Assembly (NCBI GenBank): GCA_012799115.1
Contig: JAAZLY010000166.1
Coordinates: forward strand, 1-42,890
Length of the DNA: 42,890 nt
Direction: 5' to 3'
Source of the DNA: Bacillota bacterium
GTDB taxonomy: Bacteria > Bacillota > Limnochordia > Darwinibacteriales > Darwinibacteriaceae
Program-made: the position numbers and the translations under genes
Notes under the pieces: generated by a model
What the model was told of the DNA's origin: nothing
Seen by the model: only the letters and a program-made list of their open reading frames with translations
Database searches by the model: none
Part shown: piece by piece, positions 7,924 through 24,433 of the stretch
Numbering within the stretch: position 1 is the stretch's first letter
Layout: the number at the start of each line of letters is the position of its first letter

Positions 7924-8442
7924 CCTGGCTTGAAACTCTTTGCGGAACTTGACCACTTTAGGGGCAATCACCATCTGACAATACCCCTGCTGGGGGTTTA
8001 GGGCAAAGTAATCGTGATGATAGTCTTCAGCAGGATAGAAGATCGCTAGTTGCGTAAGTTCAGTGACAATGGGATCATCCCAAAGTGAAGCCATGTTGGT
8101 CATCACTTCCCTAGCGACTTCTTTTTCGTCGTCAGTTTCATAGAAGACAACAGAACGGTATTGGGTGCCAACGTCTCCCCCTTGCCGATTTAGCGTTGTT
8201 GGATCATGAATGCTAAAGAAGACTTCCAAGAGGTCTTTGTAGCTGATGACATCTGGGTCATAGGTGATTTGAATGACCTCAGCGTGGCCCGTTTCATCTG
8301 TGCAGACTTGCTTATAGGTCGGATTTTCCACGTGCCCACCACTATAACCGGGAACAACGGCTACTACACCCTTTAGATCCTTAAAGATCGCTTCTAGACA
8401 CCAAAAACATCCTCCACCAAACGTGGCCGTGCGATGATTCAT
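7912..8442 (-). CDS. msrA: Peptide-methionine (S)-S-oxide reductase MsrA
   Basis: The catalytic motif is GGGCFWCLEAIF, followed by GYSGG...NPTYKQVC...GHAEVIQITYDP. I prefer the ATG at 8442 (MNHRTATFGGGCFWC); the listed TTG at 8472 adds 10 aa. Confidence 0.9.
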   Translation of the reverse strand: MNHRTATFGGGCFWCLEAIFKDLKGVVAVVPGYSGGHVENPTYKQVCTDETGHAEVIQITYDPDVISYKDLLEVFFSIHDPTTLNRQGGDVGTQYRSVVFYETDDEKEVAREVMTNMASLWDDPIVTELTQLAIFYPAEDYHHDYFALNPQQGYCQMVIAPKVVKFRKEFQARLKA

Positions 8443-8486
8443 GCTTCTCGTCCCTTCGAATTCAAATATCAAGAAAAGGTGATCAC

Positions 8487-9251
8487 TTGGATTCTATCTA
8501 TAGATATCCCCAATACTATGAAATAGCCTACTCCTACCGGAATATTGCCGCGGAAGTCGATGTAATGGAGGAAGCTGTGCGCAAGTACTCCAAGATTCCG
8601 GTACAGACTGTCTTGGAACTAGCATGTGGCAACAGTCCCCACATGCTTGAGCTAGCTGCTCGGGGTTACGATTACTATGGCCTAGACATAAGTCCTACCA
8701 TGATCGAGTTTGCCCAAGAAAAAGCCAGAGAACACGGACTGGATGTCCATTTTTATCTAGCCAACTTCGTCGACTTTCAGATCGAAAAGCCGGTAGACTT
8801 CGTCTACATCATGCTCGGTTCTCTCTATGTGAATAACACCGAAGAGCTTCTCAGTCACTTTGCCAATGTGTATCAAGCCCTGAAACCTGGCGGACTGTAC
8901 TTCCTCGAATGGTGCATTGACTTTGCTTCCCTCGATAACAGCCTTGATAGCTGGGTCATGCGTCAAGACGGGATCACCGTTACCACCCGTTACTCAACGC
9001 GTCTACATAATGCCCCAGAGCAGCTCTATGAAGAGAACATCCTCTTTACCATCAAAGATAAGGGGAAACCCCTCAAGTTACTCCATACAGGCCTACGGAG
9101 AGCGATCTTTCCTCAGGAGTTTGTCTTGGCCGCCACCAAGCTCAACGGATTTGAGCTTCTAGGTTGGTGGGATGACTGGAACTGGAATCGTCCCCTAGGA
9201 GAAGGACGGGGCGAAATCGTCCGCCCCATCACAGTATTACGCCGTCCCTAG
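8487..9251 (+). CDS. Class I SAM-dependent methyltransferase
   Basis: SAM-binding motif I is VLELACGNSPHMLELAARGYDYYGLDISPTMIEFA, and the post-I/II region contains LKPGGLYF. TTG start. Confidence 0.8.
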   Translation: MDSIYRYPQYYEIAYSYRNIAAEVDVMEEAVRKYSKIPVQTVLELACGNSPHMLELAARGYDYYGLDISPTMIEFAQEKAREHGLDVHFYLANFVDFQIEKPVDFVYIMLGSLYVNNTEELLSHFANVYQALKPGGLYFLEWCIDFASLDNSLDSWVMRQDGITVTTRYSTRLHNAPEQLYEENILFTIKDKGKPLKLLHTGLRRAIFPQEFVLAATKLNGFELLGWWDDWNWNRPLGEGRGEIVRPITVLRRP

Positions 9252-12063: not shown

Positions 12064-12171
12064 TGCATCAACCTCCGTCTATTTTGCTAGATATACTCAT
12101 TATACCACATTTCCAGGCAGGAACTGATAGTCTTACGGAGAAACCCTGTCTGGAAAGGAGTGAGATTGTCT

Positions 12172-12588
12172 ATGTGGAAAGAACACTACCGGGTTGGCTC
12201 TGATCTCATCGACACCCAACACCAAGAACTCTTCAGACGAGTATCCGCCTTCATTAAGGTGGTGCAGAGCGATCGTCCCTGGGAAGAACGCCTGGAAGAG
12301 GTAGAGGAAACCCTTGCTTTTATGCAACATTACGTGATCATCCATTTTGCAGACGAAGAACAGTTGCAACAGGAGATCGGCTACCCTGGATTTGAAAAAC
12401 ACAGGCAGATTCATGAGAACTTCAAAGCAGAGGTTCAAGCGTTTGCCAAGACAGTTGAACTTGAAGGTTTTAACGAAGAAAAGGTCCAGGAGTTTAGCGC
12501 TAAAGTCATGACTTGGTTAATCATGCACGTAGGTCGCGAAGACCAGAAAATTGGTGAGTTCCTGCGTTCAAAGGAGGTCACAAATTGA
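12172..12588 (+). CDS. Bacteriohemerythrin (single hemerythrin-like metal-binding domain)
   Basis: Motifs MWKEHYRVGSDLIDTQHQELF, the His/Glu ligand pattern HFADEE...HRQIH, and LIMHVGREDQKIG. An SD GGAAAGGAG sits at 12152-12160. The listed GTG at 12160 is an alternative start. Confidence 0.85.
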   Translation: MWKEHYRVGSDLIDTQHQELFRRVSAFIKVVQSDRPWEERLEEVEETLAFMQHYVIIHFADEEQLQQEIGYPGFEKHRQIHENFKAEVQAFAKTVELEGFNEEKVQEFSAKVMTWLIMHVGREDQKIGEFLRSKEVTN

Positions 12589-13055
12589 GAGTCGAGTACA
12601 TAAATCCGTTTTATCAAGCTACCATCGATGTCTTTCGAGTTATGCTGAGTTTGGAACCAACAAGGGGCACCCTTAGGGCTGTCGAGGAACTCGTCCCCGT
12701 TAGTGAGGCTAATGTAGGTATCGGGGTTACTGGCGATTTGCGGGGATCCCTTCTCTACAGTTTCCCTGCCTCAATGGCCCTTGAAATGGTCAGGATCATG
12801 TCTGGCATGGAAATGACCAAGCTCGATGCCTTTGTCACATCTGCCCTTAGCGAAGTAGCCAATATCATTAGTGGGAATGCACTAACCTATCTGGCACGGA
12901 ACTCTCTCACCTGCGATATTTCACCTCCCCAAGCTTTTGTGGGCAGTAAGGGTGCTATGGCCATGTCCACCGAAAAGGCCATTGTGCTACCATTAATCAC
13001 CGATATCGGCACACTAGAGATCAGTATTTCCTTACATGCCAAACATGTAGAGTAA
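12585..13055 (+). CDS. cheX: CheX-type CheY-P phosphatase (CheC/CheX/FliY family)
   Basis: 156 aa. Motifs INPFYQATIDVFRVML, GDLRGSLLYSF and the active-site-like SEVANIISGNA (E-x2-N), which resembles Thermotoga CheX. The TTG start at 12585 overlaps the hemerythrin TGA (12586-12588). Confidence 0.8.
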   Translation: MRVEYINPFYQATIDVFRVMLSLEPTRGTLRAVEELVPVSEANVGIGVTGDLRGSLLYSFPASMALEMVRIMSGMEMTKLDAFVTSALSEVANIISGNALTYLARNSLTCDISPPQAFVGSKGAMAMSTEKAIVLPLITDIGTLEISISLHAKHVE

Positions 13056-13060
13056 ACAGG

Positions 13061-13116
13061 AAAAAGAAAATGCCTGCTCAAGCCATACCGCACTTGAACA
13101 GGCATCTTATTTTGTT
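13061..13116. terminator. Bidirectional intrinsic terminator between cheX and the convergent beta-barrel gene
   Basis: TGCCTGCTCAAG (13071-13082) pairs with CTTGAACAGGCA (13093-13104): 12 bp with one mismatch. It is flanked by aaaaagaaaa upstream and tcttattttgtt downstream. Confidence 0.65.
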
Positions 13117-13125
13117 CGCCAAGGG

Positions 13126-14499
13126 CTAAAAAGAACCGCTACCTAAGGTAATAGCTGCAAAAACAGTGGTATTGCGACCGACACCGCCAAACTCTGTGGC
13201 CACATCGCCGTAGTTGAAACTCACTCCTACGCTCGGTGAGATTTTACTGATGGAAGGTAGCTTCAAGGTCGTTGTGACCATCCCCAATTGATCAGAGAGG
13301 TTAGCATTCAGGTAGGCAGAAGCCGACAGCTTCGTGTTCAGGAGATTGCTCCATCCAATCATGGCCGCTAGGTAGTGTCTACCGGTAGAAGCCATGTCAG
13401 ACAGGCTGAAATCTTCAAGTGCCTTTTCGGCCATCTCTTTCATGGTTTCATCCTTAGATTGCGCCATGCCAAGCAATAAGCCATAATACTCCCGGAGCTT
13501 TTGGATATCGTCCTGTTCCTTATATCCTTCTCCATTGAAGTAATATTGACCGGCCAGAGTAAGGTTGAAGAGTCCATCAGGGTCATTATGATTATACATA
13601 GCTCCTGCAGTAGCGTGGAAGAAGAGCTGATCCTTTTCTACCACCGGATAGGTGGGTGGATGCAGCAGAGAGGGTCCCGCCTCAGCAAATCTCTTGTCAG
13701 ACCCTTTGCTCAGCACAGCTTCCCCAAAGACAGCCAGGTTACCGAGGGAAGAAGAAACGGTAAGCATCGCCCGGGGGGCTTTGTCCTTCTGATAAAAACC
13801 GCCTACTCCAATTTCCGTTCCGCCGAGCACAAACTCCAGCTTAGGAGCTAAGGCAACTTGGCTTGGCTCCTCGACACCGTCAAAGAGTGTATATACATAG
13901 TAGTTTGTACTGCCTCTTGGATAATGCATCTTGAGGGCAACAGGTCCTTCTAGCTCGACTTCTGGATCCATAGGATTAATCCGTCCCACACTGATCACAT
14001 CTGCTGGACTAAAAAAGTACCCTACACCCCATTTGACATTCTGTTTACCCGCTCTAAAGAACACCTTGTTATCATAGTTGAAGTCTGAGAAGAGCTCCTG
14101 CAAGCGGATCTGTAAAGGATCGCTAGCTTGTCCCGCCTGACCAACTTGCTTACTCACAGCATAACTCAAGCCAGCTTTGCCAAAGACACGGAAGTTCGGA
14201 TCCGGTCTGGCGTCCAAGTAGATTTGCCCACCAAGGGATGCCCGCAAGGAATCCATAGGATCTATTTCCTTCATATAGACTCTGCCCGCTGTAACGGAGA
14301 ACTGGTAGTTCCCCCCCACATCCAAGCCTTCCTGAACTAGGAGCGCTTCTTCGGGTGGCCGGATTTGCTCTTCCTCCTCCAATTCGACCAGGAGGTCACC
14401 TCCAAAGAGGTCGTCAAAATCGAAGTCCATAGCCCAAGTGGTACTGCTGATTCCTAGAATGAGCACAAGGGCAACAAGAAACGAACGATGTCTACGCAC
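13126..14499 (-). CDS. Secreted hypothetical protein, predicted outer-membrane beta-barrel. It is the last gene of the ABC/LolA-like operon.
   Basis: The signal peptide is MRRHRSFLVALVLILGISSTTWA. Amphipathic beta-strand patterns with aromatic residues alternate along the whole length. The block FFRAGKQNVKWGVGYFFSP resembles the G(R/K)Q..WG.G motif of DUF1302 / alginate-export-type barrels. The C-terminus is ...TVFAAITLGSGSF (terminal Phe). GTG start 12 nt after the upstream gene. Confidence 0.6.
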   Translation of the reverse strand: MRRHRSFLVALVLILGISSTTWAMDFDFDDLFGGDLLVELEEEEQIRPPEEALLVQEGLDVGGNYQFSVTAGRVYMKEIDPMDSLRASLGGQIYLDARPDPNFRVFGKAGLSYAVSKQVGQAGQASDPLQIRLQELFSDFNYDNKVFFRAGKQNVKWGVGYFFSPADVISVGRINPMDPEVELEGPVALKMHYPRGSTNYYVYTLFDGVEEPSQVALAPKLEFVLGGTEIGVGGFYQKDKAPRAMLTVSSSLGNLAVFGEAVLSKGSDKRFAEAGPSLLHPPTYPVVEKDQLFFHATAGAMYNHNDPDGLFNLTLAGQYYFNGEGYKEQDDIQKLREYYGLLLGMAQSKDETMKEMAEKALEDFSLSDMASTGRHYLAAMIGWSNLLNTKLSASAYLNANLSDQLGMVTTTLKLPSISKISPSVGVSFNYGDVATEFGGVGRNTTVFAAITLGSGSF

Positions 14500-14511
14500 G
14501 ATATCTACCCC

Positions 14512-15282
14512 CTAGCGGTTTACTCTCTCGATATAGGCCTTCGTAAAAACATGATCCGGGATATCGTTGACGGAGATTTCACTAACGGAAATCTGGGTCT
14601 TGTTCCCTTCCACCAACTCATCAACGAAGATCATCTGCACAGGGATTACCACATTTCCAACCTTGGTATACTTCGGATACAAACCAGTACGCATTAATCG
14701 GTACGTGAGGCTGTACTCTTCCGTTTTCAAGACGAGGTCGGAGTCCTTAGTAACCCAAAGCTTAACAAAGGGAAATGGTACAGTATCGTCTACCGCCTTG
14801 AGATCAATGATGTAGACTTCAAAGTTACCCAACGTACCTTCTAGATAGCCTTCCACCTCATAGGATGAGGAGTAGCTATTCGATCCAAAGTCGGCATTGC
14901 GGGCATCAGAACCTTGAAACGTCTCCTTGAGGGAAGTGTGGGCAAACTGTCGGCTAGACGGATCATAAAACCACAAGTTATCTCCTTCCAGAAGATACCC
15001 CTGGCCCTTCTCGGTAATAGGCTCTTGTATCAGGAGCAAGAAACGTTCACCATCATCACGCCTAAACTGACGGACCACCATCTTTTCAATACCTTTTTCC
15101 TGATCTTCCACAACCATGGTCAACACCGATGAAAAGTCTGTATTCTCAAAGCGAGACTGCCGATCAAGGCGTTCCAAGATGGCTTCGATGTGGCTAAAGT
15201 CTTGGGCCTTGGCTGGTACCACAAATCCTGCCGCAAGAAAACACAGGACCAAAGCAGCAGAAAGAAATCGCATTTTATTCAT
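14512..15282 (-). CDS. LolA-like outer-membrane-lipoprotein-sorting-type periplasmic protein (LolA_like family)
   Basis: The signal peptide is MNKMRFLSAALVLCFLAAGFVVPAKA, an SPase I type with no lipobox. The central block EKGQGYLLEGDNLWFYDPSSRQFAHTSLKETFQGSDARNADF is typical of LolA_like proteins encoded next to FtsX or RND transporters. Confidence 0.75.
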   Translation of the reverse strand: MNKMRFLSAALVLCFLAAGFVVPAKAQDFSHIEAILERLDRQSRFENTDFSSVLTMVVEDQEKGIEKMVVRQFRRDDGERFLLLIQEPITEKGQGYLLEGDNLWFYDPSSRQFAHTSLKETFQGSDARNADFGSNSYSSSYEVEGYLEGTLGNFEVYIIDLKAVDDTVPFPFVKLWVTKDSDLVLKTEEYSLTYRLMRTGLYPKYTKVGNVVIPVQMIFVDELVEGNKTQISVSEISVNDIPDHVFTKAYIERVNR

Positions 15283-15294
15283 TGGTCAAACCCC

Positions 15295-16629
15295 CTATGT
15301 GTGAGAACTTAACGCCTTTATGGGCGACATTTTGGCTGCAGCACGTGCAGGCCAATAAGCTGCGAGTAAGCTGATGAAAACCACGATAGCGGTATTGAAA
15401 ACCACCTTCGTTAGAGAAAAGATGAACGTAATTTTCCCGTTATCCAAGAAGAACTGCATCGATGGATCGGTATTAAGTTCAATGCCACCTACGATGAAGG
15501 AGATGACAAGAGCAAGGAATAGCCCAGCTATACAGCCGAGAAGACCAAGAAACACTGCTTCCCAGAGGAAGATATTCTTGACCTGCTTTTGGTGCATGCC
15601 GAAGGCCCTCATGGTACCAATTTCCTTGGTTCGCTCAATCATGATCATGCGGAAGGTGTTAGTAATACCCACCATGGTTACGACCAAAAGGATCAGGAAA
15701 ATGACTTGACCCACCCGGTTTAACACACCCACCACCAGCTCTACAGCCTCCATGATCTGGTTAATGTGCATGATCTGATAACGTGTACCCTCCCAGGGAG
15801 TGAGTTCCTCTCTTTCCGTCATCGGGTCCATGGGCATTCCCGCCACCGTGACTGAAACTGCAGGCTCCGCTTCCACCACTTCCTCTTCCTCGTCTTCAGC
15901 TCGGAGTCCCTCTCGAAACACTCTGGCAAACTCATCAACCATGTCTAGGTCTGTGAGGAACATGTTTAGTAACTGATACTCGTGGGGGTCCATCCCTAGC
16001 AGAGTATTAAGATACGAACGACTGGTATAAGCGGCGGAGAGACCCAACTCTTCCTGGTCTTTGATGAAGGCTACAACCTTAACCTCGCCAACATTCTGCT
16101 GACCAGTTAGGGTCTCTAGTCGAATAATCATCGTCTCTCCCACCTGGACTCCCAAGCGTTCTCCAACCGGCTGAGGCAAGATAATAGAAGCTTCTTCCGT
16201 CCCTATTTCACTAAAGGATCCTTCGGTTACAATGAGACTCTCTAGGAGTTTAGTCTCTTCGGCAAAGTCAACCCCATAGAGCATCTGCATCGTCTGTCTA
16301 GAACCAAAAATCATAGTGGGCATCGCCTGACTCCGGCGAGTGAACCCCTCTATCTGCGCCCCATGCTCCTCCAAGAGCTGCTCGAGGCGCTCGTCGGGCC
16401 TAATTTTCATGATCATCTGGCCAGCATCTGTCCACTCACGTCCCATAATGAAGATATGACCCCCAAGGGCATGGGAGAAGTTCTCACGGATATTTCCCAC
16501 AACACCTCCCGTGAGGGCGTTCATCAATGTAATTACCAACATACCAAAGGCGATCGCACCAGCCAAGAGGAAGCTACGCTTTTTCTGCCTCAAGATGTTG
16601 CGGAAAGCCACCTTCATTGTCAAGAGCAT
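15295..16629 (-). CDS. ABC transporter permease, FtsX/MacB type (permease 2)
   Basis: 444 aa. The N-terminal TM is AFRNILRQKKRSFLLAGAIAFGMLVITLM. A large extracytoplasmic domain of about 270 aa follows. The C-terminal FtsX domain is MIMIERTKEIGTMRAFGMHQKQV plus 3 TM. SD GAGGTGA lies 5 nt upstream. Confidence 0.9.
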   Translation of the reverse strand: MLLTMKVAFRNILRQKKRSFLLAGAIAFGMLVITLMNALTGGVVGNIRENFSHALGGHIFIMGREWTDAGQMIMKIRPDERLEQLLEEHGAQIEGFTRRSQAMPTMIFGSRQTMQMLYGVDFAEETKLLESLIVTEGSFSEIGTEEASIILPQPVGERLGVQVGETMIIRLETLTGQQNVGEVKVVAFIKDQEELGLSAAYTSRSYLNTLLGMDPHEYQLLNMFLTDLDMVDEFARVFREGLRAEDEEEEVVEAEPAVSVTVAGMPMDPMTEREELTPWEGTRYQIMHINQIMEAVELVVGVLNRVGQVIFLILLVVTMVGITNTFRMIMIERTKEIGTMRAFGMHQKQVKNIFLWEAVFLGLLGCIAGLFLALVISFIVGGIELNTDPSMQFFLDNGKITFIFSLTKVVFNTAIVVFISLLAAYWPARAAAKMSPIKALSSHT

Positions 16630-16634
16630 CTAGA

Positions 16635-18125
16635 TCACCTCGAACTTTCCATAGCTTTTAAGGGCGATGTCTTCATTACAATAGCCGTGGGATAAATACT
16701 TGAGACGATGCCCACAACCAATATCACGACAAAGGATAGGATCACTGACGAGACAGACAACTCTGGACGCAGGACCGGACCACCATAGATGATCTCAACG
16801 AACATGTTGCCGGCCTCAAGTCCGATTCTGTTTAGAATAAACAGAACCAATGAACCTAGAACAACTCCGATGGTACCTGCAATCCCCGAGAGAATCAGGG
16901 TCTCCCAAACGACCATGCGACGTACAAAACCCTTCTGTGCACCAATGGCACGCATGGTTCCGATCTCGCCCATCCTTTCCGTAACAGAAATGACCAAGGT
17001 GTTCATGATGATGATCACGGCTACAACAGCGATCAAGAAGACGACACCATTGAAGATGCCCTTAACTCCATTGGAGAGCTGAGCGATAGACCCGGCCGCT
17101 TGCATCCAATCTCTGGTCTGGGCTGGAATGTTGTGTTCAGCAAAGAACTTGGCAAAATCCACCTGAGCCTGTTTGAGATAGGACTCATCGGTCAAACGGA
17201 TTAAAAGGTATTGCCAGGCGCCAGTATCCTCCACATTGGATAGATCCCGCGATTCGGTCTCACCAAGTAGGGAAAACCAATAATCGTCCCCTATAGACTC
17301 CCCTTCTACCTCCACGGGTGCAAAGAGAGCATCAAGGGATCCAAAGGAGTCAAAAAGGCTCTCTTCATCGATAGCTCCTAGGAACGACTGTTCTTCGGGG
17401 CTCAAATCTACCGGTGCGGCGTGACCGACGACCATGCCCGCTAGAGCCCTCACGTTCGATACATCCATCAACGAGACCATATCAAGTTGTATGTTCGATT
17501 GCTTAAATTGGAAAATCCCCGCAATCTCCACTTCTCGAATACGCATGCCCGTGATTGTGCTGGCTGAGGTAAACAGAAGTTTGTCTCCAGGTCGTAAAGT
17601 AAATCCGATCTGCTTTTCGATCATCTCAGCAACCACTTTGTTCAGAAGGATACCCTGTTCACCCGGTCCCCAAAAGTCTCCTGCCAAGAGCTCCACATTA
17701 TCGGCGAACATTGCATGATAGTCGTCTGGCACAATGCCAAAAAGCTGGGTAATGCCAAGCATCTCATCTCCCCTAGACACCATGGCATTTGCCGAGAGCT
17801 GGGGATTGACCATCTCCACATAGGGAAGAGTTCTGGCATACTCTACAACTTCCGCATAGTCAGGAATTCTCGGAACAGCCCGCTCCATGGCCGTCATATC
17901 TTGAAAGCCGAAGAGCGTAAGGTAACCTTTGCTTTCACCTGTAATCATGAGATGACCGGTGTAGTTTTGAATATAGTAACGTTCAATGCCTGCCGCGGCC
18001 GAATCCATAAAGGAGTTACCCACCACAAGAACCATGATACCGATCATCATGATCAGGCCAATAATCAGCGTTTTGACTTTATGTTCACGCAAATTGCGCC
18101 AAGCAATGGTAAGGATGATTCTCAT
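16635..18125 (-). CDS. ABC transporter permease, FtsX/MacB type (permease 1)
   Basis: 496 aa with the same architecture as permease 2 (AWRNLREHKVKTLIIGLIMMIG...; ISVTERMGEIGTMRAIGAQKGFV) but a clearly different sequence. Its ATG overlaps the ATPase TGA (ATGA at 18122-18125). Confidence 0.9.
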   Translation of the reverse strand: MRIILTIAWRNLREHKVKTLIIGLIMMIGIMVLVVGNSFMDSAAAGIERYYIQNYTGHLMITGESKGYLTLFGFQDMTAMERAVPRIPDYAEVVEYARTLPYVEMVNPQLSANAMVSRGDEMLGITQLFGIVPDDYHAMFADNVELLAGDFWGPGEQGILLNKVVAEMIEKQIGFTLRPGDKLLFTSASTITGMRIREVEIAGIFQFKQSNIQLDMVSLMDVSNVRALAGMVVGHAAPVDLSPEEQSFLGAIDEESLFDSFGSLDALFAPVEVEGESIGDDYWFSLLGETESRDLSNVEDTGAWQYLLIRLTDESYLKQAQVDFAKFFAEHNIPAQTRDWMQAAGSIAQLSNGVKGIFNGVVFLIAVVAVIIIMNTLVISVTERMGEIGTMRAIGAQKGFVRRMVVWETLILSGIAGTIGVVLGSLVLFILNRIGLEAGNMFVEIIYGGPVLRPELSVSSVILSFVVILVVGIVSSIYPTAIVMKTSPLKAMESSR

Positions 18126-18835
18126 GACAAGTTCCCCACCTTGGCACTTCTTTTGGTATCTTCCACAACGAGACCATCGAGAAGTTGGATCACATGATCA
18201 GCAATATCCATAATCGTCCTATCATGCGTCGAAAAGATAAATGTCGTATTCAGCTCGGCATTCATCTTCTTCATGAGCTCAATAATGCTCTGCCCCGTCT
18301 TGGAGTCCAGATTCGCCGTTGGTTCGTCGGCCAAGACAATCTCCGGTTTCGTGGCTAAGGCCCTAGCAATAGCCACCCTTTGCCGCTGTCCTCCGGAAAG
18401 TTCGTTCGATTTGTGATGCATGTGATCGCCTAATCCAACGGCCTCCACGAGAAATTCGATCCACTCTCGGATCTCCTTCTTACTCCTTTTATCTTTACCT
18501 AATAGAAGTGGGAACTCGATATTCTCGTAGACATTAAGTACTGGAATCAGATTGAAGGATTGGAAGATAAAGCCCAAAGTCTCGTGGCGGAGCCTAGTCA
18601 AAGCCTTGTCCTTGAGACCATCCGTTACGGTTCCATTAATGCTCACAATCCCGTCAGTGGGTTGATCAATGCAACCAATGAGGTTTAGAATGGTTGACTT
18701 GCCTGATCCAGATGGTCCCACGATGGAGGCAAAGTCACCCTTTTCTATAGAAAAAGTCACACCGCGTACCGCGTGCACCTCTGCCTTACCAAGAGTGTAG
18801 ACCTTCTTCACATTTTCTAGCTCAACAATGCCCAT
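18122..18835 (-). CDS. ABC transporter ATP-binding protein, LolD/MacB-ATPase-like
   Basis: Walker A GPSGSGKST, signature LSGGQRQRVAIARAL, Walker B IVLADEPT, and FQSFNLIPVLNVYENI. I prefer the ATG at 18835 (MGIVELENVKKVY) with SD AAAGGAGAGG 5 nt upstream. The listed 44-aa N-terminal extension has no SD. Confidence 0.9.
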   Translation of the reverse strand: MGIVELENVKKVYTLGKAEVHAVRGVTFSIEKGDFASIVGPSGSGKSTILNLIGCIDQPTDGIVSINGTVTDGLKDKALTRLRHETLGFIFQSFNLIPVLNVYENIEFPLLLGKDKRSKKEIREWIEFLVEAVGLGDHMHHKSNELSGGQRQRVAIARALATKPEIVLADEPTANLDSKTGQSIIELMKKMNAELNTTFIFSTHDRTIMDIADHVIQLLDGLVVEDTKRSAKVGNLS

Positions 18836-18969
18836 CTGAACCTCTCCTTTGCTACCTAGTACACCTAGTATACCCCTTTGGCTACGTTCATTCAATTCTT
18901 TACAATGTATAGTACTTCGCCATTTGTTATACTTGGGTTGTCCGTGACTCTTGCTGTCTACCGGCAACG

Positions 18970-18991
18970 GTGTACTAGTTATCTAGTGCAC
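18970..18991 (-). repeat. Imperfect inverted repeat GTGTACTAG-N4-CTAGTGCAC at the predicted transcription start of the ABC operon (operator or leader hairpin candidate)
   Basis: Read directly from the sequence: 9-bp arms with one mismatch, 5 nt downstream of the candidate -10. Related copies are ACCTAGTA x2 at 18854-18870. Confidence 0.5.
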
Positions 18992-18995
18992 TAAT

Positions 18996-19025
18996 ATTGT
19001 ATAACATGCTTTCCTCGTTTGTCAA
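18996..19025 (-). promoter_or_regulatory. Candidate sigma-70-type promoter of the ABC/LolA-like operon
   Basis: On the minus strand: TTGACA (19025-19020), an 18-nt spacer, TACAAT (19001-18996). This implies a leader of about 150 nt. Confidence 0.45.
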
Positions 19026-19168: not shown

Positions 19169-21061
19169 TTACACTCCCGTTATCAAGACCGTAAGGTAAT
19201 ATAACGCCAGTGCAGCTAGGACCGTCAAAATGAGAAAGACATCTGTATTGAGATTGGAGAAGTTTAGGTTATTGAAAATTCCACCGCCTTCATAATCCAA
19301 TCTGCGGTTCACAACCATCAAGCGCCTATAGTAGCGTCGCAAGCCTCTGGTCACCAGCCTTGCAGGAGACTGATACATCTTACTTGCGCCGAGCTCCACC
19401 GCCTTATAGGCTTTAACAAACTGCCATCCCGCTACTTCTAGGCTAAGCCAGCCCGGCGGTTGGTAATGGAATAGATGGGTCTTCATGCCAAAGGCAAAGA
19501 AGGTTGCACCAATGGCTAGTGTAATCAGCATATCCCAGACAGCGGTACTCTCAAAGAAGCTGATATGGGTAAGATGACTGATATCAGATACTCCCGCAGC
19601 TAAAGTAGCAGGAATGACAAAGAGATTCAGGATCAACTGAGGTTGGGTACCAATGATCAACATAACCACGGCCAATAGGACCATCCCGGAGGCCAAGAAG
19701 GGTCCTTCCCCTGCTCCTTCCTTTAGCTTGGTCTTTTGCTTACCGAAAAACATGAGTCCAATCAACTTGACGAAGGATGCGGTGGTTCCGACACCCACAA
19801 GATTGAAGAAGCGCTCAGACCAAACCATGATTGGATTTCCTGAAAGAGCCACATCCAGAGCACTGTGATGGAGCAGGCTCTTACTAATAAATCCATTGAG
19901 ACCTGGGGTACCTGTAATGCCAAAAGCGGCAATGAGCATGCAGATTGCAGTTATCGGGTACTTCTTCCATAGGCCACCGAGCTTGTAGAGATTAAGCTCG
20001 CCTGTGCCCAAATAGATAATGCCTACACCCAAGAAAAGAGCGGACTTGAACAGTGCATGATTGAGAGAGTGGAAGATTGCCCCTGATACCCCATAGGCAC
20101 CTTGCCCTAAGACCAAGGCGGTACCAATACCGAGAATAATATAGCCCATCTGACTCACACTGTGGTAAGCCAGAAGACGCTTGGCATTCCCCTGCAAGAG
20201 GGCCAGACCGACACCTAGCAGCATGGTTGCAACACCAAGGATGACAACTAGAGTTCCAAGCCAGGGTACAAGACCTCCCAGACCCCAGTCAACGAGTTGC
20301 CCGGTGCGGATCATGCCATATGCGCCGGCCTTGATCAGAATTCCGGAAAGCAAGGCGCTACCCGGCGTCGGTGCCACAGGATGGGCCATCGGTAACCAAA
20401 TATGAACCGGAACCATACCCGCCTTGATACCAAAACCAAGGAAAAGCAGGATAACTGCCCAACCAAACAGAGCGGTGTCTGTTGGCAACAAAGCCGCAAT
20501 GCCTAGTTCAGTCGTCACTCCAGACACTAAGAGTAGGGCAATAGCTCCTGCGAGGCAAAGTCCGGCAGCGATACCGAGAAATAGATAGAAGTATCCAGCC
20601 CGCATGCTTTCTCGATCTCTGCGATGAATGACCCAGAAGAACGAAGCCACAGTCATGATCTCGAAGAAGAGTAACAGAGTCACGAAGTCACCGGCCAGAA
20701 ACACACCCTGGACAGCACCTAAGGTAATCAGATGGAAAACAGTGAAACTCAATGGACGTTCCTCGCGCTGCATATAGGTATACATGTAGATCCCTGTAAC
20801 CAGCCACACAAGAGCAGCAAAGAGTCCAAAGAGGGCCGATAGGCCGTCAAGGCGGAGGGTCGGCGTGAAAATCGATGATCCCCCCAATTGGCAGATTAGG
20901 GTTTCTCCACTCCTTTGTGCCAAGTAATTCATCATACTTCCAAGAAGGCTAAGGAATCCCACAGCAATGTTCAAGATCAATTGCCCCCGTAAGTCCTTAA
21001 AACAGGGCAACATAGCAGCACCCAAGAATGGAATGAGAATTAGGAATAAACTCCAATACAT
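19169..21061 (-). CDS. Antiporter-like subunit, NuoL/MrpA-core type, with a C-terminal extension of about 150-200 aa
   Basis: 630 aa. It has the Proton_antipo_M core (WLPMAHPVAPTPGSALLSGILIKAGAYG, LAYHSVSQMGYI). The extension is a charged amphipathic stretch (KAYKAVELGASKMYQSPARLVTRGLRRYYRRLMVVNRRL) followed by one final TM. SD GGAGGTGAAGGTGA is present. Confidence 0.8.
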   Translation of the reverse strand: MYWSLFLILIPFLGAAMLPCFKDLRGQLILNIAVGFLSLLGSMMNYLAQRSGETLICQLGGSSIFTPTLRLDGLSALFGLFAALVWLVTGIYMYTYMQREERPLSFTVFHLITLGAVQGVFLAGDFVTLLLFFEIMTVASFFWVIHRRDRESMRAGYFYLFLGIAAGLCLAGAIALLLVSGVTTELGIAALLPTDTALFGWAVILLFLGFGIKAGMVPVHIWLPMAHPVAPTPGSALLSGILIKAGAYGMIRTGQLVDWGLGGLVPWLGTLVVILGVATMLLGVGLALLQGNAKRLLAYHSVSQMGYIILGIGTALVLGQGAYGVSGAIFHSLNHALFKSALFLGVGIIYLGTGELNLYKLGGLWKKYPITAICMLIAAFGITGTPGLNGFISKSLLHHSALDVALSGNPIMVWSERFFNLVGVGTTASFVKLIGLMFFGKQKTKLKEGAGEGPFLASGMVLLAVVMLIIGTQPQLILNLFVIPATLAAGVSDISHLTHISFFESTAVWDMLITLAIGATFFAFGMKTHLFHYQPPGWLSLEVAGWQFVKAYKAVELGASKMYQSPARLVTRGLRRYYRRLMVVNRRLDYEGGGIFNNLNFSNLNTDVFLILTVLAALALYYLTVLITGV

Positions 21062-21079
21062 AGATTCACCTTCACCTCC

Positions 21080-22555
21080 CTACAAGATAAAGAACTGGTT
21101 AACCACGGCATGAACTAAGGGCCAAGTGAGTCCGGGCCACAGACCCAGAACAACTCCGAGAATCGCTAAAACCAAGGTTGGAGCCAACATCAGCCACACC
21201 AACCTAGTCCTCTTGCGCGGTAAGAGTTCAGATTGCCCCGAAAAAGCAGACACCGTTATGGGAATAAAGTAGAAAGCGTTAAGAATTCCGCTCACCAACA
21301 AAACGACCAACAGAGGCCAAGAACCAGTGACGAGGCTGCCTCGAAGGAGATAGTACTTGCTCCAAAATCCGCTCAAGGGCAACATGCCAATCATTCCTAG
21401 ACTGATAAGCCCAAAACTTCCCATTGTCAAAGGTAGGACACGTCCCACTCCCGATAGCTCACTCACCTTCAAATACCCTGTCTCCTCTGCCACAATCCCA
21501 GCTGAGAAGAAGAGTACGATTTTGAGCGTCGAATGAAAAATCATGTGCAAAATTGCGCCTGCCAGGGCCAGAGGATGGAGCAAAAAGGCCCCGAGCAAGA
21601 TGTATGCCAACTGGCTAATCGTCGAATAGGCCAAACGCCTCTTTAGAACATCTTGCCGAAGTGCGATTAAGGATCCCATAAGAATCGTAATGGAGCAAAT
21701 TAACAGCAGGAACGGACGTACCCCCATACTCTGAACAAGATCGGCTCCAAAGACCGAATACACCGTACGCAAAATGCCAAAGACACCAGCGTTGACAACG
21801 GCCACCGCGTGTAACAGTGCACTCACGGGCGTAGGTGCCACCATAGCCGCAGGTAGCCAGCCATGGAGGGGCATGATTGCCGCCTTGACTCCAAAACCGA
21901 GCAAGAACAGAAAGAATATGACGACCAGTCGCCCTAGGGGCAACCCAGCTAGTGCAGTGGGTAAACTGGCAAAATCAAGGATGCCACCCGTCCCAAACGC
22001 AAGCATGACAATACCAGCTAAAATGAAACTAGCCCCAACCAAGCTATACTTGATGTACTTGGTACCAGCTTGCAGTGCATCCTTAGTACCACTGTGTACA
22101 ACTAAAGGATACGTAGCAAATGTGAGTAACTCATAGAACAAGTAAAACGTAAAGAGGTTGCCCGAAAAGGCCAGACCCAGAGTAATCCCGGCCGATAACA
22201 GGAAAAAGGTGAAATACTGTTTCTGTTTATCATCGCCGTGCAGATAACCTATGGAGTAGACGCTAGCAAAGACCCAGAGAGTTGATGCAATCAGCCCATA
22301 GGTCAAACCCAGAGGATCAACTGCAAGCTTCAGGCTTAGCGAGGCTATCGCCAAGCTAATCTCGGGGTACACGCCCGAGGGAATGGCGAAGCCCAAGTGC
22401 CAGACCAGAATCATGCCAAGAAGTGCAGATCCGACCACAACACCATTGCGTAGGCCTTTTTCCTCTCTAGAAAGAAGTGCGACCGCAAGAGATCCAAGGG
22501 CGGTACTCAGAATTGCAGCAATAACAAAGGCAATACTCACTATAATACCCCCCAT
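21080..22555 (-). CDS. Antiporter-like subunit, MrpD/NuoM-N type (second copy)
   Basis: 491 aa and polytopic. Motifs WLPAAMVAPTPVSALLHAVAVVNAGVFG and LAYSTISQLAYIL. The start is either the ATG at 22555 (16-nt overlap) or the GTG at 22540 (TAGTG overlap with the upstream stop). Confidence 0.85.
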   Translation of the reverse strand: MGGIIVSIAFVIAAILSTALGSLAVALLSREEKGLRNGVVVGSALLGMILVWHLGFAIPSGVYPEISLAIASLSLKLAVDPLGLTYGLIASTLWVFASVYSIGYLHGDDKQKQYFTFFLLSAGITLGLAFSGNLFTFYLFYELLTFATYPLVVHSGTKDALQAGTKYIKYSLVGASFILAGIVMLAFGTGGILDFASLPTALAGLPLGRLVVIFFLFLLGFGVKAAIMPLHGWLPAAMVAPTPVSALLHAVAVVNAGVFGILRTVYSVFGADLVQSMGVRPFLLLICSITILMGSLIALRQDVLKRRLAYSTISQLAYILLGAFLLHPLALAGAILHMIFHSTLKIVLFFSAGIVAEETGYLKVSELSGVGRVLPLTMGSFGLISLGMIGMLPLSGFWSKYYLLRGSLVTGSWPLLVVLLVSGILNAFYFIPITVSAFSGQSELLPRKRTRLVWLMLAPTLVLAILGVVLGLWPGLTWPLVHAVVNQFFIL

Positions 22556-24045
22556 CGCAACAATGTCGCGGCAGCTTTTTGAGCGAGTTGCAGGACCTGG
22601 TGGGGAAATACACCAACCACAAGGACGAGAGCTGCCAAGAAGACCATCGCCACAAGTTGGACAGACGGCGCTTCGTCTTTAGCCGGAGTGGGCGTCGGAC
22701 GTACGAAAAGGGCCGTACGCAAAACGGGAAGCAGATAGGCGGCTGCTAAGAGACTACCCGCAACGAGTACGAGCACAGCAAGATAGTTGCCTTTGGCTAA
22801 AGCCCCGAGAAGCAGCTGCCATTTGCTTACAAAACCAGAAAACAGAGGAATGCCAATCATGGACAATGAGCCTATGGCAAATACACCTAGAGTAACAGGC
22901 ATTTTAAAGCCGATCCCTGCCATCTCACTAATTCGGGTCTTACCCGTCCGCTTGATCATCGCACCAGCAGCCAAGAACAACAACGCCTTCGTTAGAGCAT
23001 GGCTCAAGATGTGCATAAAGCTCCCTGTGAGACCGTGAATATTACCCAGACCAATTCCCAAGAAAATGTAGCCCACTTGAGAGACAGTAGAGAAAGCTAA
23101 GCGACGTTTTAACTCGTCTTGAGCCAAAGCAAACAAGGCCCCAGCAACAATAGCCCCCATGCCCAGGAGAGTGAGGATAGCCGTAATCGGGAGTTCCCAG
23201 ATTATCTGGGCCCCTACACCAACGTAAAATATCTTTAGGAGAGCAATAATGTACCCCTTAATGGCCAGCGAAGACAATATTGCGCTGGAAGGTGAGATGG
23301 CCGTGGAGTGAGCATCCGGCAACCAGACATGAAGGGGAAACAAGGCAGATTTCACTCCAAAGCCTACCGTAAAGAAGCTCAAAGCAACCCACAGAGCGGT
23401 CGGATAGTTCTGCCATGTCAGACGCAACGTTTGCCCGATATAATTCAGGTTAAGGTTGCCAGTCAATACAAAGAGGAAGCCAATTCCCAGTAAGACAAAG
23501 CCAGAGCCAATCGTGGCTAACATCAAGTACTTGAACGTGGCCGCCACGGACGCCGAGTCATTACGGGCAGAAACTATGGCGCAGCTTGCAATGGTTGCTA
23601 CTTCCACCATCACATAAATGTTGAAGATATCGCCGGTTATCGCCAGACCGCATAATGCAGCAACTAGGAGCAGAAACAAGGTCAAGAACCAGGCCGCCCT
23701 AGAACGGCTACCAACTTCCGCAACCAAGTCGTAGGAGGCATAGAGCATAATGGGGGTTGCCACAAGACCAATGGTAATTAAGAAGAATCCGGAGACAGCA
23801 TCTAAGGAAAGCTCAATGCCCCAAGGTGCAGCCCAGCCACCAACAGCATAGGTGAAGGAACCATGATTCAAAATTCCTTGACCTAGGTATATTCCTCCCG
23901 ATAATGCCAGAGCGATCATGAAGACAGCAAAAAACTCTGCAAAACGAAATCGCCGAATCTTGGTCAAAAGGGGCATCACATAGGCAGAAGAGAGCAAGGC
24001 GACCACAATTAGGACTGGTAGATTATCACGAACCACTAGTGACAT
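22540..24045 (-). CDS. Antiporter-like subunit, MrpD/NuoN type (first copy)
   Basis: Motifs WLPDAHSTAISPSSAILSSLAIKGY and LAFSTVSQVGYIFLG. The ATG at 24045 (MSLVVRDN) has SD GAGGTGGGGG upstream and overlaps the end of the mrpC-like gene. Confidence 0.85.
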   Translation of the reverse strand: MSLVVRDNLPVLIVVALLSSAYVMPLLTKIRRFRFAEFFAVFMIALALSGGIYLGQGILNHGSFTYAVGGWAAPWGIELSLDAVSGFFLITIGLVATPIMLYASYDLVAEVGSRSRAAWFLTLFLLLVAALCGLAITGDIFNIYVMVEVATIASCAIVSARNDSASVAATFKYLMLATIGSGFVLLGIGFLFVLTGNLNLNYIGQTLRLTWQNYPTALWVALSFFTVGFGVKSALFPLHVWLPDAHSTAISPSSAILSSLAIKGYIIALLKIFYVGVGAQIIWELPITAILTLLGMGAIVAGALFALAQDELKRRLAFSTVSQVGYIFLGIGLGNIHGLTGSFMHILSHALTKALLFLAAGAMIKRTGKTRISEMAGIGFKMPVTLGVFAIGSLSMIGIPLFSGFVSKWQLLLGALAKGNYLAVLVLVAGSLLAAAYLLPVLRTALFVRPTPTPAKDEAPSVQLVAMVFLAALVLVVGVFPHQVLQLAQKAAATLLRWGVL

Positions 24046-24433
24046 CGGCCCCCACCTCATTTCCTAGTCTTGTTAGCCTTGCAATTTCCCTAGCATCTAC
24101 TGTCCCATACGAGCGATATAACTTCATGATTAGGGCGAGGGACAGAGCGGTCACACTTACGCTAACCACAATACCGGTCAACATCAGAGCCTGTGGTAAG
24201 GGATGCACATAGACAAGATCCGAATTGGCTAGATCTAAAACCGGGGCTACCCCACCTCTTACATTACCCGCGGCAATGAACAAGACATAGATGCTCCCTT
24301 CCATGATATTGATGCCAATGACTTTCTTAAACAAGTTAGAGTGAGTCAAAATGGTATAAACACCGATGGCAAATAAGGCTAATGCAAAAACATAGGGATA
24401 ATTCTGTACTATACGGCTCCCAAACTCACCCAT
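24026..24433 (-). CDS. Mrp subunit C / NuoK-like
   Basis: 135 aa with three TM. Motifs NIMEGSIYVLFIAAG and LPQALMLTGIVVSVSVTALSLALI are typical of MnhC/NuoK. Confidence 0.8.
   Translation of the reverse strand: MGEFGSRIVQNYPYVFALALFAIGVYTILTHSNLFKKVIGINIMEGSIYVLFIAAGNVRGGVAPVLDLANSDLVYVHPLPQALMLTGIVVSVSVTALSLALIMKLYRSYGTVDAREIARLTRLGNEVGADVTSGS

Follow-up and report, generated by a model that had tools for sequence, protein, structure and literature searches.

[quoted passage not shown]

Genes and boundaries of the cassette

The window, a 42,890-nucleotide stretch of DNA from a member of the Limnochordia, contains five open reading frames on the minus strand between positions 13126 and 18835. 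In gene order, these encode an ABC ATPase (18122-18835, 237 amino acids (aa), with an ATG start at 18835), permease 1 (16635-18125, 496 aa), permease 2 (15295-16629, 444 aa), a LolA-like protein (14512-15282, 256 aa) and a predicted beta-barrel protein (13126-14499, 457 aa, GTG start). A longer version of the ATPase reading frame, starting from a TTG codon and extending to 18967, is unsupported by the alignment of homologous leaders. The first two genes overlap by 4 nt (ATGA, 18122-18125) and the following junctions are gaps of 5, 12 and 12 nt. Each start codon is preceded by a purine-rich Shine-Dalgarno sequence (aaaggagagg, aaggtgggg, gaggtga, taggggg and taggggg, respectively).

The unit is bordered by a conserved promoter-like site on one side and a terminator-like hairpin on the other. 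The promoter-like site, TTGAAT-17 nt-TATACT (18867-18895, minus strand), was found in a consensus scan and lies some 30 nt ahead of the start codon of the ATPase gene. Its hexamers are conserved in position in 16 aligned Limnochordia-type leaders (attGAATgaa...ggGTATACT...AAGGAGAGG..ATG), and we infer that it functions as the promoter of the ATPase leader. The hairpin is strong, with a 17-pair stem followed by a T-run (13067-13108, minus strand), and begins 18 nt past the stop codon of the barrel gene. A distal promoter-like site, TTGACA-18-TACAAT (18996-19025, minus strand), is located upstream of the proximal one and is followed by a palindrome with 10-bp arms (18969-18992, minus strand). 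Together (18969-19025) these could possibly form a second promoter or an operator, an uncertain assignment; both elements recur only in L002 and L008, the closest relatives. No Rfam family matched the operon leader. A reading of this locus from sequence only had proposed a single unit on the basis of the overlap, the gap sizes and a separate Shine-Dalgarno sequence for each downstream gene. These features are all present and, together with the flanking signals and the conserved gene order described below, support a single unit of transcription and function.

Pump, carrier and barrel components

The ATPase carries the Walker A motif GPSGSGKST and the signature LSGGQRQRVAIARAL and matches ABC_tran (PF00005, 5e-32). 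Its top NCBIfam models are the LolD, DevA, DarD, FtsE and MacB ATPases, all of which score under cutoff (for LolD, 230 bits with a cutoff of 307.75). Both permeases combine an FtsX domain (PF02687, 2e-19 for permease 1 and 8e-21 for permease 2) with a MacB_PCD domain (PF12704, 8e-8 and 6e-8, respectively). Hydropathy predicts a 1+3 arrangement of transmembrane (TM) segments in each, at residues 17-35, 350-379, 405-428 and 456-474 of permease 1 and 21-44, 299-317, 350-376 and 406-432 of permease 2. In permease 1, TM1 is followed by a large periplasmic MacB_PCD domain and a 3-TM FtsX domain; permease 2 has the same architecture and a different sequence. The PDB sequence matches of permease 1 are LolE, YtrF, LolF, MacB and LolC, over the FtsX TM part only, and those of permease 2 are YtrF, MacB, LolE, LolF and LolC. 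Against the lolCE model, with a cutoff of 362, the two score 89 and 75 bits, respectively. One ATPase and two non-identical FtsX/MacB permeases are thus present, as had been read from the sequence. In public annotation the permeases appear as generic ABC/FtsX permeases and the barrel as a 'hypothetical protein'.

The fourth gene product matches PF17131 (1e-39, 136 bits, cutoff 30), the LolA_like family that is named TP_0789-like in newer Pfam. The LolA_like block noted earlier, GDNLWFYDPSSRQF...FQGSDARNADF, is present in the translation, and the protein has a type I signal peptide without a lipobox, with one N-terminal signal-like hydropathy segment, in agreement with its description as secreted. 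Its sequence matches the PDB entries 3buu (E=2e-25) and 4z48, a DUF1329 protein (E=2e-3). The AF2 model (pLDDT 86.7) is matched by Foldseek with TM scores of 0.72-0.83 to 3buu, 3bk5, 9tp6 (LolA3 of Porphyromonas gingivalis) and 4z48, the last at 0.75-0.79, and with 0.4-0.57 to canonical LolA and LolB. The nearest solved relatives of the carrier are hence uncharacterised PF17131/DUF1329 proteins and P. gingivalis LolA3. Within the conserved C-terminus, ...ERVNR, residues E252 and R256 do not vary. After the ATPase (median identity of 69% to spirochaete copies), the LolA-like protein is the most conserved part of the cassette, with 52% identity to spirochaete copies compared with 37-42% for the permeases and the barrel, which we read as constraint from several partners simultaneously.

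The AF2 model of the 457-aa protein is an 18-stranded beta-barrel (pLDDT 82.8, pTM 0.77) with loop helices at residues 329-369. Foldseek matches it to the 16-18-stranded outer-membrane barrels MOMP, OmpM1, OccAB1, AlgE and chitoporin, with E-values of 1e-11 to 1e-9 and TM scores of 0.4-0.5 that identify a generic large barrel only. The protein has a signal peptide (...TWA/MDF), seen as its one N-terminal signal-like hydropathy segment, and ends in the ...GSGSF pointed out earlier, of which the C-terminal Phe is nearly invariant in the family. A conserved N-terminal segment, DFDxLFGxDL...PEExLLV, includes the invariant residues F32 and L54; residues 21-45 within it have a pLDDT <50 in the model. 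The protein is therefore predicted to be a secreted outer-membrane beta-barrel, as the sequence-only reading had anticipated. Its match to DUF1302 (E=0.003, 17 bits) lies under the cutoff of 23.2. DUF1302 is the sole Pfam family matched by the barrel family, through 12 of 40 members (best 2e-6), and the alignment covers a motif region of ~60-120 residues only, with an hhalign probability of 59%. The barrel may thus be a distant DUF1302 relative, although the link is weak.

Conservation in two phyla and relation to the MacB and Lol systems

Starting from the barrel, 48 related genome loci extend at least 4.7 kb upstream of its gene, and 47 of them contain all five genes in an unchanged order. 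A further 30 shorter loci are partial and compatible with this order, and a search starting from the permease yielded three loci, each with the five genes. The neighbourhood search from the LolA-like side likewise found the barrel and LolA-like genes kept in homologous operons, a point on which the earlier proposal had depended. No sixth gene was found to be conserved alongside the cassette in both phyla. Because the order is the same in 47/48 loci, the arrangement is far beyond chance. It has been suggested as an alternative that the LolA-like and barrel genes lie by coincidence next to a MacB-type pump of the usual kind, for efflux or peptide export, and the generic public annotation would suit such a pump. 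However, the synteny counts, which span two phyla and concern genes that overlap or lie close together, refute coincidence in practice and make this explanation highly improbable. MacAB-TolC resembles the cassette in having a type VII ABC transporter whose periplasmic domains are of the MacB_PCD type and, presumably, in using mechanotransmission, but it operates with a membrane-fusion protein and a TolC-type trimeric duct. No such partner (HlyD/MacA or TolC) was found anywhere in the window, and the cassette has in their place a LolA-like protein and what is predicted to be a monomeric 18-stranded barrel.

The cassette is carried by metagenome-assembled genomes of Limnochordia/Bacillota and Spirochaetota, the latter being the source of most copies recovered. 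Limnochordia are diderm Firmicutes by electron microscopy; a monoderm host would have been at odds with the original proposal. In the window, the cassette is neighboured by genes for an Mrp antiporter, CheX and hemerythrin, and no biosynthetic genes lie next to it. The protein encoded at 5103-5711, previously called a spore-cortex hydrolase, contains LysM and Hydrolase_2 (SleB/CwlJ-family) domains, which fits a sporulating host and falls short of proving one. The cassette is not particular to sporulating diderms, as most recovered copies are from Spirochaetota.

The cassette has also been viewed as a functional Lol pathway of diderm Firmicutes, in which the ABC transporter would extract mature lipoproteins, the LolA-like protein would carry them and the barrel would replace LolB as acceptor or insertase. 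Like LolCDE-LolA-LolB, it has one ATPase, two non-identical FtsX/MacB_PCD permeases of 4 TM (compare LolC/LolE) and a soluble periplasmic protein with a LolA fold and a type I signal peptide, and the best-scoring named models are LolD for the ATPase and lolCE for both permeases. Surveys in which Lol was 'practically absent from Terrabacteria' searched for LolA with PF03548 alone, so PF17131 carriers would escape them, and a similar idea has been proposed for Borrelia BBJ23-29 (PMC13078400). However, every Lol equivalog cutoff is widely missed (LolD 230/308, lolCE 89 and 75/362, LolA 12/112 bits), and the cassette was rejected as a Lol orthologue on this ground. The Lol carrier belongs to PF03548 and its terminal partner is a LolB-type lipoprotein, whereas here the carrier is PF17131 and the partner is predicted to be an integral beta-barrel. 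In Bacteroidota, lipoprotein traffic does not depend on the PF17131-type paralogues that have been studied: the LolA3 protein of P. gingivalis shows no binding to LolB, is without the LolA Arg and LolB Leu features and has been proposed to serve a separate function, and deletion of lolA3 in Flavobacterium johnsoniae gives no gliding or T9SS phenotype. The restriction of LolB to beta/gamma-proteobacteria, assumed in the sequence-only reading, is itself outdated, as LolB homologues have been described in Bacteroidota. In addition, most carriers of the cassette are spirochaetes, a phylum that already possesses a LolA encoded on the chromosome (BB0346), and no match named Negativicutes or Halanaerobiales is among the proteins listed. 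Some genomes have two cassettes (L039/L044 and L058/L078), and a two-component system follows 17 of 38 spirochaete copies, traits that suit a regulated accessory transporter better than a housekeeping route. Elsewhere, the carrier-plus-barrel module goes with lipopeptide or terpene export. We therefore abandon the original framing as a Lol-type lipoprotein route and regard a Lol function as unlikely.

Carrier-plus-barrel modules and the proposed export route

A LolA-superfamily protein together with a DUF1302 barrel constitutes a known, poorly understood module previously tied to RND pumps; the analogy with DUF1329/DUF1302 pairs drawn in the sequence-only reading is confirmed by the literature. 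For instance, Castellaniella defragrans tolerates monoterpenes less well and accumulates more Nile Red when AmeABCD is deleted (PMC6394551), and the genes of a DUF1302/DUF1329/BNR/RND cluster are cofit (bioRxiv 072470). In Pseudomonas putida, PP_0765/0766 with PP_2018/2019 are required on Tween 20 and complexes are predicted (PMC10866462). DUF1302-DUF1329 pairing has an AF-Multimer ipTM of 0.84, and such pairs are predicted to associate stably. As in the cassette, the RND-linked clusters (AmeABCD, PP_0765/0766 with PP_2018/2019, and Shewanella Sama_1588-1591) have a LolA-superfamily gene adjoining the gene of a DUF1302-type 18-stranded barrel; there, carrier and barrel serve an inner-membrane pump on hydrophobic substrates, as is proposed for the cassette. 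In contrast to the heterodimeric type VII ABC transporter, PF17131 carrier and ~440-480-aa barrel under the DUF1302 gathering score found in Limnochordia and Spirochaetota, these clusters have an RND/HAE3 pump, a PF07044 carrier, a barrel of ~540-600 aa and a BNR/Ycf48-like protein that is absent from the cassette, and their hosts are Proteobacteria.

In Acinetobacter baumannii (locus L085), the gene for an SRPBCC-MMPL-LolA_like fusion overlaps by 4 nt with the next gene, which encodes a DUF1302 barrel (423 aa) that aligns with the window barrel family over the shared motif (hhalign E 9e-5). These genes are assigned to A1S_0116/A1S_0117 in the A1S_0112-0119 lipopeptide (Ac-505) operon, the reading frames having been mapped to A1S_0116-0119 by length and domain content rather than by identical accession numbers. 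[quoted passage not shown] As in the cassette, the coding sequences for an inner-membrane pump, the PF17131 LolA_like domain and the DUF1302-type barrel thus follow one another directly, but the pump is of the MMPL/RND type with the LolA_like domain fused to it and an N-terminal SRPBCC domain, and the operon is a biosynthetic cluster. For Borrelia burgdorferi BBJ23-BBJ29, a MacB-like ABC transporter with a PF17131 protein and an Omp85 outer-membrane barrel has been proposed in silico (PMC13078400). By its published description it resembles the cassette in component types, but its barrel is of the Omp85/BamA-TamA type, its permease is predicted to form a homodimer, and the cluster, which is plasmid-borne, additionally encodes two TPR proteins and one unknown protein.

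The same analogues bear on the direction of transport, as the barrel and the LolA-like protein could instead move a nutrient of hydrophobic nature, or a lipid that is mislocalised, from the outer membrane to the inner-membrane ABC transporter. The P. putida DUF1302/DUF1329 genes are required for growth on both Tween 20 and butyl stearate and have been discussed as a substrate transport system, and large 18-stranded Occ/OprD-type barrels are uptake channels. The phenotypes of the RND-linked analogues also fit fatty-ester uptake and so do not settle the direction. On the other hand, no solute-binding protein was found in the operon, and the experimentally supported analogues point toward export. 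Moreover, no importer is known among type VII (MacB-class) ABC transporters, and we consider an uptake or retrograde system improbable.

Hence, building on the gene structure, the domain and fold assignments and the gene order in two phyla, which are direct observations on the cassette, we hypothesize that it probably serves as an accessory system that exports a hydrophobic or amphiphilic molecule across the envelope. The component logic of the earlier reading (an ATPase, two MacB/LolCE-type permeases, a LolA-fold protein and an outer-membrane barrel) is supported by Pfam, AF2 and Foldseek. The pump would be a type VII (MacB/LolCDE-class) ABC transporter formed by the two different permeases and presumably two ATPase copies, in which long TM helices would relay cytoplasmic ATP hydrolysis to the domains on the periplasmic side, as the analogy with MacB and LolCDE suggests. 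The cargo would then enter the hydrophobic groove of the secreted PF17131 LolA-fold protein, from which the 18-stranded barrel would take it into or across the outer membrane. Synteny and analogy suggest physical contacts between the permeases, the LolA-like protein and the barrel. The LolA-like protein may be an adaptor docked on the barrel rather than a free shuttle, since the Acinetobacter domain is fused to the pump and the DUF1302-DUF1329 pair is predicted to form a stable complex. Transport direction and cargo are likewise inferred; the preferred candidates are a surface molecule of the lipid, glycolipid or lipopeptide type, or a toxic hydrophobic compound destined for expulsion, while lipoproteins are much less likely. 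In the cassette, a type VII ABC transporter would be the driver of a module of the LolA-superfamily plus DUF1302 type.

Organization, conservation and distribution of the cassette

The cassette consists of five minus-strand genes within 5.7 kb, coding for an ABC ATPase (18122–18835, 237 aa from the ATG at 18835), permease 1 (16635–18125, 496 aa), permease 2 (15295–16629, 444 aa), a LolA-like protein, hereafter the carrier (14512–15282, 256 aa), and a barrel candidate (13126–14499, 457 aa). The ORFs are consecutive and lie exactly where an earlier sequence-only reading had placed them. Likewise, the junctions it described, a 4-nt ATGA overlap followed by gaps of 5, 12 and 12 nt, and the purine-rich Shine-Dalgarno sequence before each of the five starts are present, and all sequence motifs that it quoted are found in the cassette translations. 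A strong terminator-like hairpin (13108–13067) follows the barrel gene at its 3' end. In an alignment of the leaders of 16 related loci, a proximal promoter-like site, TTGAAT-17-TATACT (18895–18867, minus strand), is conserved. A distal sigma-70-like near-consensus site, TTGACA-18-TACAAT (19025–18996, minus strand), is common only to the two or three closest relatives and was dropped as the operon promoter, since the leader alignment keeps only the proximal site. It adjoins a palindrome with 10-bp arms (GTGTACTAG-TTAT-CTAGTGCAC, 18969–18992), also confined to the closest relatives. Distal site and palindrome (18969–19025) lie some 130 nt farther upstream than the conserved promoter and could represent an operator, a second promoter or a small transcript. 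An Rfam search of the 5' leader for riboswitches gave no match at E ≤ 1.

Upstream, on the strand of the cassette, lies a Mrp/Mnh-type cation/proton antiporter cluster (19169–26580; three Proton_antipo_M subunits and an MNHE subunit), whose last gene is separated from the cassette promoter by a hairpin with a T-run. A hemerythrin gene and a CheX/CheC-family gene (12160–13055), which overlap by 4 nt, run towards the barrel gene in convergent orientation. They accompany the cassette in about 17 Limnochordia-type loci, probably through simple vertical synteny. The other genes of the window are housekeeping genes (PFOR, GH130, cyclophilin, hemerythrin, CheX, Mrp antiporter, aroA/aroB, transporters and regulators) and none of them hints at a cargo.

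A barrel-profile scan of one genome per GTDB species yielded 79 loci, covering the best 80 of 249 matching genome loci, in which ORFs were called and then searched with the five window proteins. ATPase, permease 1, permease 2, carrier and barrel genes are found in the same order and on the same strand in 47 of the 48 loci with at least 4.7 kb of upstream sequence, and 30 shorter contigs agree with this order as far as they extend. In 71 of the 79 loci the barrel gene is immediately preceded by the carrier gene, the remaining ones being truncated contigs or two exceptions: an orphan barrel on a 4.7-kb contig, and the spirochaete locus L058, where only the carrier and barrel genes are present next to an apparent defence island, with a second, complete cassette in the same genome. 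Coding regions at 2677–8492 and 12442–13947 of this locus include N6_Mtase, PRTase-CE, ORC-CDC6-like and dUTPase genes, plus AAA_15 downstream. In the reverse direction, two homologs of the carrier and three of permease 1 (43–47% identity) on long contigs are all part of the five-gene arrangement. [quoted passage not shown] All-against-all clustering of flanking ORFs revealed no further gene conserved with the cassette across both phyla that could serve as a cargo clue.

The closest named relatives of the window are Limnochordia/Bacillota MAGs (barrel identity 78–82%). Among the 79 loci, again from the best 80 of 249, about 30 are labelled Bacillota, Limnochordia or Clostridia and about 49 are Spirochaetota. 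A rough NJ tree built from four concatenated proteins groups the Firmicute copies in a single clade beside or within the spirochaete diversity and only suggests a direction for any transfer between Firmicutes and spirochaetes. Limnochorda pilosa has been described as a Gram-negative spore-former. Limnochordia are one of three diderm Firmicute lineages, and electron microscopy of cultivated members reveals an outer membrane, in line with the diderm host assumed previously. The gene taken for a spore-cortex hydrolase (5103–5711) encodes a SleB/CwlJ-family protein with LysM and Hydrolase_2 domains, which is compatible with sporulation but does not prove it. 

Genes for an OmpR-type response regulator and a HAMP/HisKA histidine kinase follow immediately 3' of the barrel gene, in its orientation, in 17 of 38 spirochaete loci, a count that allows for stop-to-stop ORF starts (for instance at 11258–11992 in L037 and 12121–13488 in L048; also at 8831–11028 in L084). 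None of 26 Firmicute loci has this pair there. The arrangement suggests signal-dependent expression of the cassette in spirochaetes. Two cassettes can be found in one spirochaete genome, as is the case for L039 and L044 in MAG JAUWZD01 and for L058 and L078 on chromosome OZ244929. The paired copies fall on different branches of the tree, suggesting that they are paralogs with different cargo.

Pump, LolA-like protein and predicted barrel

The ATPase matches PF00005 (ABC_tran), and each permease matches both PF02687 (FtsX) and PF12704 (MacB_PCD) above cutoff and has, by hydropathy, one N-terminal and three C-terminal transmembrane helices. The pump thus combines the features that define the type VII/MacB superfamily: FtsX, MacB_PCD, four transmembrane helices and an ABC ATPase. 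The PDB relatives of the permeases are LolE, LolC, LolF, MacB and YtrF, and the resemblance is confined to the FtsX membrane domain. Among NCBIfam models the Lol models rank first for the pump proteins, all of them far under their equivalog cutoffs: the ATPase reaches 230.2 against 307.75 bits for LolD (TIGR02211), and permeases 1 and 2 reach 89.4 and 74.6 against 362.45 bits for lolCE (TIGR02212), while the two permeases give 63 and 49 against 540 for LolE (TIGR02213/NF008357) and 28.5 and 31 against 473 for LolC (NF008076). Since these scores are so low, the pump is classified, on sequence, as a heterodimeric MacB-superfamily transporter rather than a LolCDE ortholog. No HlyD/MacA membrane-fusion protein or TolC duct is encoded in the cassette or by window ORFs of at least 150 aa, no HlyD/MacA or TolC-family gene is among the genes conserved with the cassette, and no RND, MMPL or BNR (Ycf48-like) domain was found in the cassette or the window.

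The carrier, publicly annotated as an 'outer membrane lipoprotein-sorting protein', clearly belongs to PF17131 (LolA_like; TP_0789-like in newer Pfam), with 136.3 bits against a gathering score of 30, and matches PDB entry 3buu by sequence (E = 2e-25). Its AF2 model (pLDDT 86.7) superimposes in Foldseek with TM scores of 0.72–0.83 on NE2245 (3buu), the Vibrio protein 3bk5, Porphyromonas gingivalis LolA3 (9tp6) and the DUF1329 protein 4z48, whereas canonical LolA and LolB structures give only 0.37–0.57. Consistently, the carrier fails the LolA model TIGR00547 (12.1 bits against a cutoff of 112), and PF03548 (LolA) is absent from its Pfam matches at E ≤ 1. It has a single N-terminal signal-like segment by hydropathy and no lipobox cysteine. 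After the ATPase it is the most conserved part of the cassette, with 52% identity to the spirochaete copies compared with 40–42% for the permeases and 37% for the barrel. Nearly all of 32 aligned homologs end in ...ERVNR, with the final Arg invariant. This conservation of the last residue suggests a contact surface and, more speculatively, the C-terminus may be a docking element.

The barrel, annotated as a 'hypothetical protein', has no Pfam match above threshold. An AF2 model built with 40 homologs (pLDDT 82.8, pTM 0.77) is a confident 18-stranded beta-barrel with a helical loop insertion, in agreement with the beta-barrel proposed from strand periodicity, and Foldseek retrieves 16–18-stranded outer-membrane barrels for it (Campylobacter MOMP, Veillonella OmpM1, OccAB1, AlgE and chitoporin). 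The protein has a single N-terminal signal-like segment by hydropathy, a type I signal peptide and no Cys lipobox. Its C-terminal Phe is nearly invariant; such a residue is the usual signature of BAM-assembled barrels. The family is large, with 1939 clusters (50% identity) at E ≤ 1e-3 and 525 of these at E ≤ 1e-30, and the best 150 matches in a search of a representative library all have E < 1e-81. A sequence search of PDB chains with the family profile gave no match at E ≤ 10.

A comparison with the DUF1302 model (PF06980), suggested in the sequence-only reading, gave a divided answer. The window barrel stays under the gathering score (17.0 against 23.2 bits, residues 121–178 only), but 12 of 40 family members match DUF1302 at E ≤ 0.01 (best 2e-6), each time through the same motif, and DUF1302 is the sole Pfam family touched by members of the barrel family. 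An hhalign comparison of the family with a DUF1302 protein of Acinetobacter baumannii gave E 9e-5 and a probability of 59% over 116 columns. We conclude that the protein is a predicted outer-membrane barrel and, judging from one motif region, a distant relative or sister family of DUF1302. DUF1302 itself has been modelled as an 18-stranded barrel with an Acinetobacter carboxylate channel and AlgE as best structural matches (PMC13499233, 2026), and the cassette presents the same context, a predicted 18-stranded barrel adjoining a LolA-superfamily gene. Behind the signal peptide, residues 24–57 are acidic and residues 21–45 have a pLDDT below 50. This region holds the conserved motif DFDxLFGxDL...PEExLLV, in which F32 and L54 are invariant in 40 homologs, and we speculate that it may be a periplasmic docking peptide.

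A proposed carrier–barrel partnership and the Lol question

By analogy with MacB and LolCDE, ATP hydrolysis would power the periplasmic domains of the pump, which would withdraw a hydrophobic molecule from the inner membrane at its outer face. The molecule would then be accepted by the groove of the carrier and taken over at the outer membrane by the barrel. Four observations support, by analogy, a direct partnership between carrier and barrel. In many Proteobacteria, DUF1302 and DUF1329 genes lie side by side and are cofit, their partners being an RND pump and a BNR protein (PMC6394551, bioRxiv 072470). A DUF1302–DUF1329 complex has been predicted by AlphaFold-Multimer with an ipTM of 0.84 (PMC13499233), and a second predicted complex contains DUF1329, the pump and the BNR protein (PMC10866462). 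A further case comes from A. baumannii. A tblastn search of a plasmid collection with the barrel gave three weak Acinetobacter matches only (E 0.2), which pointed to the A1S_0116/0117 locus. In the corresponding A. baumannii region (L085; NZ_CP064203.1, 3310030–3322452), the ORF at 2063–5713 encodes a 1216-aa fusion of a lipid-binding SRPBCC (Polyketide_cyc2) domain with MMPL/RND and C-terminal PF17131 domains, and the ORF at 5710–6981, overlapping it by 4 nt, encodes a 423-aa protein that scores above the DUF1302 cutoff and aligns with the window barrel family. By gene sizes and neighbours, these are A1S_0116 and A1S_0117 of the A1S_0112–0119 operon, which makes the lipopeptide Ac-505 and is required for surface motility and pellicle formation; a1s_0116 mutants are motility-deficient. 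The literature labels the two proteins 'RND transporter' and 'porin-like', and we found neither the three-part fusion of A1S_0116 nor the DUF1302 membership of A1S_0117 in the publications consulted on the Ac-505 operon. BLASTP of the carrier against the fusion gave no significant match (E 0.2), and their kinship is based on the shared Pfam family PF17131. By analogy, the fusion argues that a LolA-like domain can work tethered to a pump, as an adaptor and not a free shuttle.

The Lol-type framing originally drawn from the resemblance to LolCDE and LolA is not supported, as all Lol equivalog cutoffs (LolD, lolCE, LolE, LolC and LolA) are missed. Instead of a LolB-type acceptor, the terminal gene encodes a predicted 18-stranded barrel without a lipobox, and the cassette contains no second LolA/LolB-fold gene. 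P. gingivalis LolA3 shows only very weak LolB binding, has neither the LolA Arg nor the LolB Leu that are diagnostic, and has been proposed to serve a separate function (PMC13103446), and deletion of lolA3 in Flavobacterium johnsoniae leaves gliding and type IX secretion unaffected (PMC11885536). Hence, the PF17131-type paralogs studied are no lipoprotein carriers in the usual sense. By locus-tag order, Treponema pallidum TP0789, the source of the new family name, adjoins the RND protein TP0790, and spirochaetes own a separate chromosomal LolA. Together with the double copies and the two-component neighbours, these traits liken the cassette to an accessory, regulated exporter rather than a Lol pathway. 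The survey that calls Lol 'practically absent from Terrabacteria' used PF03548 alone for LolA, which leaves some room for a Lol reading: in Limnochordia, a lineage of Terrabacteria and reportedly without Lol, the cassette could be the delivery route of acylated proteins or bulk envelope lipid to the outer membrane, with the barrel replacing LolB as acceptor or insertase. We regard this as unlikely; if true, it would be a second, independently assembled system of lipoprotein or lipid delivery to the outer membrane, common to, and possibly acquired from, spirochaetes.

Comparison with known systems and implications

The cassette we regard as an accessory exporter shares a type VII pump with MacAB-TolC but is without the membrane-fusion protein and TolC duct of that system. 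DUF1302/DUF1329/BNR/RND (HAE3) clusters use an RND/HAE3 pump and a BNR protein, whereas the cassette has a type VII ABC transporter and no BNR protein. The nearest idea in print, an in silico proposal for Borrelia BBJ23-29, involves an Omp85 barrel and a homodimeric permease (PMC13078400), and full-text literature searches found no published description of a five-gene ABC–LolA-like–barrel cassette. Each part is of a known kind, and the carrier-plus-barrel module is already known with RND pumps; new is its combination with a heterodimeric type VII ABC transporter in a fixed five-gene cassette of Limnochordia and Spirochaetota.

Compact and represented by hundreds of sequence clusters, the cassette is tractable for structure prediction, reconstitution and ligand identification. 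It places a Lol-like machine in diderm Firmicutes. Current evolutionary scenarios assume that diderm Firmicutes have no machinery for sending lipidated molecules to the outer membrane; they build on surveys that would have missed PF17131. The pairing of a LolA-superfamily protein with a DUF1302 barrel is widespread, and lipopeptide export, solvent tolerance and growth on fatty esters have all been linked to it. By analogy, the cassette would be a form of this periplasm-to-outer-membrane module in which a type VII ABC transporter takes the place of the RND pump as driving unit, which suggests that greasy cargo may quite generally travel through such a module instead of an MFP-TolC duct.
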